Shown here piece after piece: positions 5,962 to 7,634 of a stretch of DNA of 24,000 nt. Below the pieces are notes generated by a model. It made no database searches. It saw only the letters and a program-made list of their open reading frames with translations, and was not told where the DNA came from. This DNA is from Akkermansiaceae bacterium (GTDB lineage Bacteria; Verrucomicrobiota; Verrucomicrobiia; Verrucomicrobiales; Akkermansiaceae), in assembly GCA_023301765.1 (NCBI GenBank), contig JALZUC010000051.1, forward strand, positions 5,315 through 29,314, in the 5' to 3' direction. A program made the translations under genes and the position numbers. How positions within the stretch are numbered: position 1 is the first letter of the stretch; each line of letters begins with the position of its first letter.

Positions 5962-6144
5962 AGTATTTATTAGTTTGATTTCACCATGATCATTGCAGCC
6001 TTCATGCCACACCCGCCACAAAAGACCCTACCAACTTACTGTAAGACAGTTATGAAAACACCAAGTCAAACCCGATCACCATTCGAGCAATCCTTCAGAC
6101 AGAATGACACGCCATTTTGTCCCACCTCAGCCAATATTACCCAC

Positions 6145-6178
6145 AAAAAAACGGCCACCGGGGATTACCCAGTGGCCG
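6145..6178 (-). terminator. rho-independent terminator downstream of rplT
   Basis: The minus-strand RNA CGGCCAC-UGGGUAAUCCCCG-GUGGCCG forms a GC-rich stem with an inner GGG/CCC extension, followed directly by UUUUUUU. It starts about 26 nt after the rplT stop. Confidence 0.8.
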
Positions 6179-6203
6179 CTGTAATTATGTTGCTTAATAT
6201 CCG

Positions 6204-6581
6204 CTACGCATTGGCTGGAGCCTTCTTATCGAGGGCTGCCTTCGCCTGATCAACGATGCTATTGAAAGCAGCGATGTCATGCACAACGAGGTCTGCAAGA
6301 ATCTTGCGGTCCACCTCGATGCTTGCGGCCTTAAGGCCTTCAATGAAGCGTGAGTAAGTAAGATCCTGTGCACGGACACCAGCGCTGATACGCTGAATCC
6401 AGAGACGGCGGAACTGTCCTTTACGCTTCTTACGGTCACGATACTCATAAGTCTGCGCTTTACGGACTGCGTCCTTGGCATACTTGTAGAGTTTCGAGCG
6501 GAAGCCACGGAAACCTTTGGCACGTTTAAGAACGCGCTTCCGGCGCTTGCGGCTGGCTGGGCTATTGGTTGCTCTTGGCAT
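6204..6581 (-). CDS. rplT: 50S ribosomal protein L20
   Basis: 125-aa basic ORF: MPRATNSPASRKRRKRVLKRAKGFRG.RSKLY..AK.AV.KA..Y.YRDRK.RKG.FRRLWI.RI.A, which is canonical L20. Confidence 0.95.
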   Translation of the reverse strand: MPRATNSPASRKRRKRVLKRAKGFRGFRSKLYKYAKDAVRKAQTYEYRDRKKRKGQFRRLWIQRISAGVRAQDLTYSRFIEGLKAASIEVDRKILADLVVHDIAAFNSIVDQAKAALDKKAPANA

Positions 6582-6731
6582 GTTTCTTTTTTCTAGAACG
6601 GACGGTTATTTTCACACCTCCCGCAGTCTCGTCCATTCGGTCTCGGTTTTCTAGTTATAGATAGCCGAGAAGGCTGCGTAGAGGCCGCTCGTGATGCGAG
6701 CGGTTGGCGTGGGCGACGCCGATTCTTGCTG
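6582..6731 (-). promoter_or_regulatory. structured 150-nt rpmI-rplT intercistronic spacer (candidate ribosomal-protein leader or attenuator)
   Basis: In minus-strand sense it contains hairpins GGCGU-CGCCC-ACGCC and CCGCUCG-CAUCA-CGAGCGG. A long-range CUAGAA...UUCUAG helix then encloses GGACG...CGUCC and a GGGAGGUG element, ending about 12 nt before the rplT AUG. The function is inferred, not shown. Confidence 0.3.
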
Positions 6732-6941
6732 TTAGGCAAAAGGAAGATTTGCTTTGACATTTTTAATGTCAGCGTCGGATACGAGAGCTGCCTTACCCAG
6801 ATTGCGTTTCCGCTTCTGGTTCTTCTTTGTAAGAATGTGGCGTTTGCCCTGCTTCCGGCGCAGAATCTTCCCTGTGCCCGTCACCTTGAATCTCTTGGCG
6901 ACGGCCTTCCGGGTTTTTGCTGTACCTTTCGATTTGGCCAT
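6732..6941 (-). CDS. rpmI: 50S ribosomal protein L35
   Basis: 69-aa highly basic ORF ([48 protein letters not shown]), which is canonical L35. It sits upstream of rplT as in the conserved rpmI-rplT unit. Confidence 0.93.
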
Positions 6942-7071
6942 GGGGCGCGCAACCTACCGATAGACCATCGAATTGCAAGGGTATTTTTGGCTTTTCCTTT
7001 CATTAGGAACAATTAATTTAAAAAACTCATTGAATAGGGAATATCCCCACAGCTAATAGCTCTTACATATT

Positions 7072-7575
7072 ATGAAGTTAGTTATATATTCCCTATATGC
7101 TCTCGCTGTAGTTGGTTTACCCATTCTACTAGTATCTTCCAACAGTGAGCCCTCATCTTACCCTGTGGAGGCTGGCCCAGCCAAGTTCCTCCGTGATCAC
7201 GATCAAGCTATGGCTCAGGCAAAAAAAACTGGGAAACCTGTTTTTGCCTTCTTTCAGGAAATCCCCGGATGAGGCGGCTGTAAAGACTTTGGTCGTCAGG
7301 TGATGACCGATCCCACTATCATCTTAGCTGTAGAGAACTCCTTCACACCGCTTCTTATCATCAATAATAAAGCAGGTGCTGATGCCAAGATCCTCAGAAA
7401 ATACAAAGAACCTGCATGGAACTACCAAGTCATCCGCTTTTTAGATAGTAATGGTAAGGACGTCATACCGCGTAAGGGGCAAGTCTATACTAAAAAGGAA
7501 CTCGCTAGCCGTATGGTCAAAGCTTTGGAAAAAGCACAGCGCCCCGTCCCTGAGGCTCTAAAAAAGCTACAGTAA
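7072..7575 (+). CDS. exported thioredoxin-fold oxidoreductase, predicted selenoprotein (UGA 7270-7272 read as Sec; redox motif U-G-G-C)
   Basis: ORFs 7072-7272 and 7300-7575 share one frame and are separated only by TGA 7270-7272. Read-through gives 167 codons: a signal peptide or anchor, then KTGKPVFAFFQEIPG-U-GGCKDFGRQVMTDP...EPAWNYQVIRFLD. The UGA occupies the first Cys position of CxxC, and a hairpin lies 18 nt downstream. Confidence 0.7.
7291..7308 (+). promoter_or_regulatory. candidate bacterial SECIS hairpin
   Basis: GGUCGUC-AGGU-GAUGACC forms a 7-bp stem (one G.U pair) with a 4-nt G-containing apical loop. The loop starts 25 nt after the UGA, within the spacing usually described for bacterial SECIS elements. 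Confidence 0.55.
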
Positions 7576-7634
7576 CTGCATATTTCACCTATATTGTGAC
7601 TTGTTAATTAGGGCTGCTGTTTTACAACGCCTGC

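Follow-up and report, generated by a model that had tools for sequence, protein, structure and literature searches.

We report that positions 7072 to 7575 (forward strand) of a 24,000-nt stretch of contig JALZUC010000051.1 from an Akkermansiaceae bacterium (hereafter the window, whose numbering is used for all coordinates) are a single gene, and that this gene very probably encodes a small exported thioredoxin-fold oxidoreductase carrying selenocysteine (Sec, U) as the nucleophilic residue of its active site (IPG-U-G-G-C). This is consistent with an uninterrupted reading frame on both sides of an in-frame UGA codon, with the alignment of this codon to the redox-active Cys of homologues, with purifying selection acting on the TGA-containing gene, and with a constrained and covarying hairpin that follows the UGA. 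An earlier note, made from the letters of this DNA alone, had already recognized a genuine selenoprotein gene here, and our results agree with that assignment.

From the ATG at 7072 to the TAA at 7573-7575, the frame comprises 167 codons and is interrupted by one internal stop only, the TGA at 7270-7272. The list of open reading frames (ORFs) on which the earlier note relied splits it into two ORFs lying in the same frame, 7072-7272 (66 aa) and 7300-7575 (91 aa, with a GTG start), and translation bears this description out. When the TGA is read through, the product is MKLVIYSLYALAVVGLPILLVSSNSEPSS...KPVFAFFQEIPG-U-GGCKDFGRQVMTDP...KKLQ, that is, 166 amino acids plus Sec at residue 67; beyond the terminal TAA, the next stop follows 7 codons on. 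The TGA at 7270-7272 is unique in the window in having long open segments on both sides together with credible coding sequence. Stop usage was examined in the 25 confident genes of the window (TAA 13, TAG 7, TGA 5), none of which carries another in-frame TGA; TGA ends asnS, the gene directly downstream. As TGA terminates five of these 25 genes, the genetic code is standard and UGA is not reassigned. The window has a GC content of 47.6%, and its confident genes show no obvious Shine-Dalgarno motifs upstream, so that arguments from ribosome binding sites are unusable for judging the internal GTG start at 7300.

Profile searches were carried out with the window protein in which U was replaced by C. 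Matches to Pfam Thioredoxin_7 (E=1e-7) and to NCBIfam NF041383 (E=2.8e-57, covering profile positions 1-134 of 287) both run across the stop, well beyond what chance would give and in agreement with the thioredoxin-type identity proposed earlier. These matches bear on the possibility that the locus holds two independent small genes of 66 aa and about 90 aa. In relatives, these are indeed exactly the two ORFs that public pipelines predict (66 aa and 90-95 aa in L136-L138 and L140, the longer ORF without a Pfam match), and a database search with the post-UGA part gave as its closest relatives fragments of 69-96 aa, one of them a "hypothetical protein" from an NCBI Verrucomicrobiae metagenome-assembled genome (MAG). 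However, neither fragment alone has a Pfam match in the public records of relatives, whereas the joined sequence gives a thioredoxin-family match across the junction. Moreover, in the model of a homologue described below, the active site comes one residue after the end of the first fragment, and the second fragment begins inside the fold; full-length Cys homologues are continuous. Two separate genes are extremely improbable on this evidence. The split and truncated ORFs in the records of relatives are what the earlier note had expected of standard gene callers. Its word "hidden" applies to the gene in the sense that gene callers do not see it, but not to the family, which is already in the literature (NF041383; OS_HP5).

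A homologue search over 5.8 billion proteins yielded 180 relatives. Among the best 120 of these 180, every one has Cys exactly at the position of U, within the motif (V/I)PG-C-xx-C in 40 and C-xx-V in 80. The alignment with Cys homologues that had been suggested as a check thus places a redox Cys over the UGA codon. IPG-U-GGC in the window protein agrees with the (V/I)PG-U/C motif of NF041383, located as there in a Thioredoxin_7-type domain. The solved structures closest by sequence are DsbD-gamma and 3f9u, and in the alignments to them the redox CxxC likewise falls on U-G-G-C (7270-7281). The UGA therefore stands where such proteins carry the nucleophilic Cys, with the resolving Cys three residues on, as had been claimed; read as Sec, this motif would combine a selenol and a resolving thiol in a thioredoxin CxxC equivalent.

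Alternatively, a Cys codon (TGT or TGC) might have mutated to TGA, leaving a dead gene. Such a change takes a single base, Cys forms are frequent among family members (the syntenic orthologue of Oceaniferula spumae, with TGT, is one), and the window shows no Sec machinery. The distribution of the TGA argues otherwise. Other genome relatives carry TGT or TGC at this codon, but TGA is present in an Akkermansiaceae MAG (L001, 70% identity) and a Roseibacillus MAG (L004), and a metagenome scan with the pattern F-Q-E-x-P-G-TGA-x5-F-G recovered at least 122 independent bona fide family loci with TGA, in which the protein is conserved on both sides of the stop. Furthermore, the gene order pheS-hsp33-hsp20-rplT-rpmI / window gene / asnS-fabV is shared by L136-138 (87% nucleotide identity to the window), L139, L140/L001 and L097, all of which retain both the TGA and the short architecture. 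The TGA is retained across all five syntenic Verrucomicrobial (Akkermansiaceae-like) lineages, at 13-29% nucleotide divergence and with no other stop or frameshift. Codon changes relative to L001 are 13:1 (synonymous to nonsynonymous) upstream of the UGA and 33:22 downstream, and this synonymous excess on both sides indicates purifying selection on both halves. Together with the synonymous constraint on the hairpin after the stop (see below), this makes a pseudogene highly improbable. The combination of TGC or TGT in close relatives with further disabling mutations at the locus, which the earlier note had named as evidence against a selenoprotein, was not observed: TGA is kept and no disabling mutations are present.

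Downstream of the UGA, the centroid fold shows a hairpin within the coding sequence (7289-7310) that has the character of a bacterial Sec insertion sequence (SECIS). Positions 7289-7297 pair with 7302-7310 (9 bp, two of them G-U) below an apical AGGU loop (7298-7301) that begins 25 nt downstream of the UGA. The bacterial SECIS (bSECIS) model calls for a loop of 3-9 nt with a G within its first two positions, a stem of 4-16 bp, a distance of 16-37 nt from the UGA, and a minimum free energy no higher than -7.5 kcal/mol (PMC13188914, Fig. 2 legend). The hairpin lies within all four constraints (4-nt loop, 9-bp stem, 25 nt, and -11.2 to -12 kcal/mol). Total folding energy was replaced by a test statistic fixed in advance, the best simple hairpin compatible with SECIS geometry. 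The window hairpin (-11.2 kcal/mol) was far more stable than those in synonymous-codon permutations (-2.15+/-2.1), only one of 200 permutations reaching the native value. Similarly, 80 Sec-form genes had a native mean of -6.0 kcal/mol against -2.7 when permuted, while mock anchors placed elsewhere in the same genes gave no effect. In nine Cys-form genes anchored at TGY the mean was -2.3 kcal/mol, equal to the permuted background and different from the Sec forms (Mann-Whitney p=5.5e-4).

Comparison of related genes supports the same structure. The 22-nt hairpin is nucleotide-invariant across four syntenic lineages in spite of their divergence elsewhere; among degenerate codons whose amino acid is constant, 7 of 7 are invariant in the hairpin as opposed to 9 of 80 in the rest of the gene (Fisher p=2e-6). 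The fifth lineage, L097, has a Q-to-E change (CAG to GAG) in one arm and a synonymous Val change (GTG to GTC) in the other, which together swap a C-G pair for a G-C pair and keep the pairing, i.e., the two changes are compensatory. Covariation was then assessed in a subgroup of ten Sec forms chosen by peptide motif only (UxxC plus F-G-[RKQH]-[QE]-[VL]-[LM]). In the window register, 90% of positions were paired versus 74+/-2.6% in shuffles (none of 500 reached the observed covariation score), and pairing was 25-60% when the partner columns were slid. Double-sided changes occurred at four pairs, and RNAalifold independently gave the same stem. The covariance analysis of the post-UGA region that the earlier note had called for supports the stem, in this motif-defined subgroup.

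The location of the hairpin is not the same throughout the family. When the first 54 nt from the UGA were compared in 104 Sec forms, most subfamilies had their loop (GGUC) centred on the codon for Gly in the F-G motif, at +18 to +21, whereas the group of the window has its AGGU loop at +25, 7 nt further downstream. A third register was seen in the FGAQVL group, and in the UxxV group the stem is broken by a mismatch. To judge from these sequences, a single protein family seems repeatedly to have rebuilt its SECIS element or moved it. Like the fdhF-type SECIS of E. coli (the bSECISearch consensus), the window hairpin lies in the coding region after the UGA and has a small loop with a G followed by G/U. 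Sequence similarity between the two is however limited to the loop motif, and the movement of the register between subfamilies is a further difference.

The hairpin also bears on whether the UGA might be read through as a standard amino acid, with Trp or Cys inserted by a near-cognate tRNA or through a reassigned code, perhaps stimulated by the hairpin and without any Sec. Downstream hairpins can stimulate read-through in other systems, and Sec incorporation is itself inferred here. However, UGA serves as an ordinary stop in the window, as described above, and the recoded UGA falls exactly on the redox-active Cys, the classic position of Cys/Sec interchange. In addition, the geometry of the hairpin is that of a SelB-type bSECIS, including G-G-U in the apical loop, and at a second site in relatives, too, the hairpin statistic distinguishes UGA from Cys (see below). 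We consider read-through of this kind very unlikely.

A number of results weigh against Sec insertion at this codon or against the proposed role of the protein. Total folding energy of the post-UGA segment was not significant, either relative to dinucleotide shuffles (z=-0.31) or relative to synonymous-codon permutations (z=-1.28 for the window; family mean z=-0.44). Across the 104 distinct Sec forms, the window register (H1) was 51.8% paired, no better than shuffles. Rfam gave no relevant match for the whole window at gathering thresholds or around the UGA at permissive E-values; curated models do not cover bacterial SECIS elements. The 24-kb window contains none of selA, selB, selC (tRNA-Sec) and selD. 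A partner gene of the Msr (methionine sulfoxide reductase), CcdA or DsbD kind is likewise absent from the window, and relatives differ in their neighbouring genes, with no conserved operon partner. No experimental characterization of any family member was found in the literature. Finally, the window protein scores 194.6 bits with NF041383, under its curated whole-protein cutoff of 275 bits.

A single family-wide SECIS consensus had been considered and was rejected, since H1 equalled shuffles and H2 was marginal; the register varies by subfamily. A search of 40 related loci found no tRNA-Sec, and nothing direct was found in the literature on the Sec trait in Verrucomicrobia; the conservation of both TGA and hairpin in several related lineages leads us to infer that the organism can decode Sec. 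As for the profile score, the window protein falls below the NF041383 cutoff because the MsrA-like C-terminal half of the family is absent from it. The relatives form two length classes, one of about 166 aa, like the window protein, and one of about 285 aa, and whereas the long forms score 318-375 bits and pass, the short forms score 195-217 bits and never do. The score with NF041382 (type 1) was 130.7 bits, also under the cutoff of that model (350). By sequence, the window protein is a thioredoxin-only short form, a domain-level relative of NF041383 and not a full member.

The fold was assessed on a short Cys homologue, the closest of its kind (52% identity), whose AlphaFold2 model is a confident one (predicted local distance difference test score, pLDDT, 87). 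In this model a strand at 51-56 leads to Cys61 and a helix at 62-70, placing the Cys at the N-terminus of helix alpha-1; the N-terminal part has low pLDDT. The best Foldseek neighbours of the model are 3f9u, Chlamydia DsbH and DsbD-gamma (E=1e-5 to 1e-3, TM score 0.6-0.7 on the target). The model supports a thioredoxin-like fold that has a beta-alpha-beta core and in which the active-site residue heads helix alpha-1. The nearest solved folds are thus DsbD-gamma, Chlamydia DsbH and the thioredoxin domain of a Bacteroides "cytochrome c biogenesis-related" protein (1uc7/2fwe, 2ju5 and 3f9u), all exported or periplasmic reductase-type thioredoxin folds in which CxxC corresponds to U-G-G-C. They differ in using Cys instead of Sec and share only 16-22% identity with the window protein; moreover, DsbD-gamma sits in a three-domain membrane protein, a context that the window gene does not have. 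At the N-terminus, the segment MKLVIYSLYALAVVGLPILLVSS (7072-7140) is a putative signal peptide or membrane anchor, as the earlier note had proposed: its first ~20 residues average 1.75-2.4 on the Kyte-Doolittle scale, and the mean drops below 0 thereafter. Homologue N-termini are comparable, many of them with lipobox-like ...AGC or ...SC motifs, and export is likely on these grounds.

A clue to function comes from the long relatives, in which the thioredoxin domain is fused to an extra C-terminal domain with the invariant pattern CFW-x-GE...DGV...TEAG...EV..V.YDP. Pfam PMSR matches this domain partially (positions 1-34 of 153), and its predicted structure matches the MsrA structures 4lwm, 1ff3 and 3pim (E about 4e-4). 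The window has no MsrA-like sequence (with CFW/UFW-x-GE) at any position. In Neisseria PilB/MsrAB, an N-terminal thioredoxin-like domain recycles the Msr domains. Full-length relatives of the window protein likewise join a thioredoxin domain to an MsrA-fold domain with a catalytic Cys or Sec, although their MsrA-like domain is shortened, and the window gene has neither a fused nor a neighbouring Msr, so that for it such a coupling is suggested by analogy. In one relative (L129:1944-3552), an msrB-msrA fusion gene (SelR + PMSR) ends 14 nt before the start of a short Cys form and is the only conserved-looking functional neighbour among the loci examined. The fusion to an MsrA fold, this neighbour and the DsbD-gamma/DsbH-like fold together suggest an exported reductant that regenerates Msr-type enzymes, a role to which we give a roughly even chance.

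We propose the following sequence of events. During translation, the hairpin at 7289-7310 would recruit SelB with GTP and Sec-tRNA(Sec), and the UGA at 7270-7272 would be decoded as Sec instead of causing termination. The hydrophobic N-terminal segment would direct the protein out of the cytoplasm, where the U-x-x-C centre, alternating between the selenol/thiol and selenenylsulfide states, could serve as a DsbD-gamma/DsbH-type reductant. The likeliest clients would be methionine-sulfoxide-reductase-type enzymes, because full-length members fuse the same thioredoxin domain to an MsrA-like domain, and Sec would supply the more reactive nucleophile.

NF041383 is defined as the VPGUxxT family thioredoxin-like (seleno)protein, type 2, and has been mapped to "hypothetical protein OS_HP5" of Zhang and Gladyshev (2007) (PMC13188914); a 2022 review entered OS_HP5 without domain or motif. 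The main text of the 2007 paper was searched for the name "HP5", which was not found there. The family is known already as predicted selenoproteins, and the window gene adds a short-form member without any new mechanism. It shares with full members the homologous thioredoxin domain, (V/I)PG-U with Sec/Cys interchange, the N-terminal export signal and the post-UGA hairpin. It differs in that the TAA follows the thioredoxin domain, the MsrA-like domain of about 150 residues being absent, and, from most members, in the position of the hairpin loop (+25 versus +18 to +21); its motif, U-G-G-C, also departs from the UxxT of the family name. The syntenic orthologue in O. spumae NT6N (L002:2929-3918) is a Cys form (TGT) with an MsrA-like domain (338 bits to NF041383). 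As O. spumae has the Cys-containing long form and the clade of the window the Sec-containing thioredoxin-only form, close relatives are separated here both by a Cys/Sec switch and by the gain or loss of a domain.

The name VPGUxxT (NF041383 and NF041382) does not fit the Sec forms that we collected: U+3 is C (93) or V (29), never T, and T is common at U+2 instead (U-S-T-C). A large Sec subgroup of 29 loci (L008, L009, L018, L022, L027 and others) has U-P/S/A-G-V, paralleling the C-x-x-V Cys forms. As it has no resolving Cys at +3, this subgroup would need a single-selenol mechanism, unlike the U-x-x-C of the window protein. A scan of viral contigs for Cys forms gave zero matches.

A second UGA was found in 26 distinct metagenomic genes (within L007-L126; for example L011, L012, L023, L041, L047, L056, L081, L102 and L109), which seem short and run on past it. 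It stands exactly where the MsrA-like domain has its catalytic Cys, in F-[AG]-M-x-U-[YF]-W-x-G-E, and is followed by ~150-190 further MsrA-like codons. With both U residues restored, the three genes tested (L047, L081 and L109) are full-length NF041383 members of 353-375 bits. Hairpins of SECIS geometry after the second UGA are strong, with a mean of -11.1 kcal/mol (n=23), compared with -3.5 kcal/mol where Cys is present (n=28; p=1.8e-7). The table of a 2026 review gives NF041383 one Sec only (PMC13188914).

The surroundings of the gene were also inspected. The slot before asnS is empty in the window (7576-7634, 59 nt), whereas it holds a class-3 fructose-1,6-bisphosphatase in L001/L140 (3500-5790), a beta-lactamase-family protein in L139 (3281-4642) and a large VWA-domain protein in L002 (3925-5949). 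The best-conserved DNA nearby is at 6144-7000 (85% to L001, versus 72-77% for flanking genes). It includes, on the minus strand, rplT (6204-6581, L20) and rpmI (6732-6941, L35), together with the 150-nt spacer between them (6582-6731) and about 60 nt upstream of rpmI (6942-7000). The conservation of the spacer and upstream region, which have no Rfam match, could reflect a leader that regulates the L35-L20 operon. A second selenoprotein upstream had been suspected from tblastx segments that abut in one frame at 6731/6732; this was rejected, as the segments are rpmI and rplT with a TAA between them.

No new mechanism or new kind of system is involved here, recoding being of the ordinary bacterial SECIS/SelB type. 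The annotation lesson is that a selenoprotein gene was split into two "hypothetical" ORFs, and that the same error stands in the public records of relatives; the NF041383 model, whose cutoff presumes a fused MsrA-like domain, misses the thioredoxin-only architecture. A broader view, which we put forward tentatively and hold to be somewhat doubtful, is that: the marine Akkermansiaceae-like clade has a distinct thioredoxin-only selenoprotein subfamily, derived from a thioredoxin-MsrA-like fusion by loss of the Msr domain and a Cys/Sec switch; this subfamily acts in trans as an exported selenol reductant; and the family is unusually plastic, including several non-homologous SECIS registers and members with a second Sec. 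If this is true, current models and gene callers systematically miss the subfamily. For the organism, the gene would imply Sec decoding in a marine Verrucomicrobial lineage, and for the family, the domain fusions of relatives offer a testable function, that of an exported selenol reductant which may serve Msr-type enzymes.

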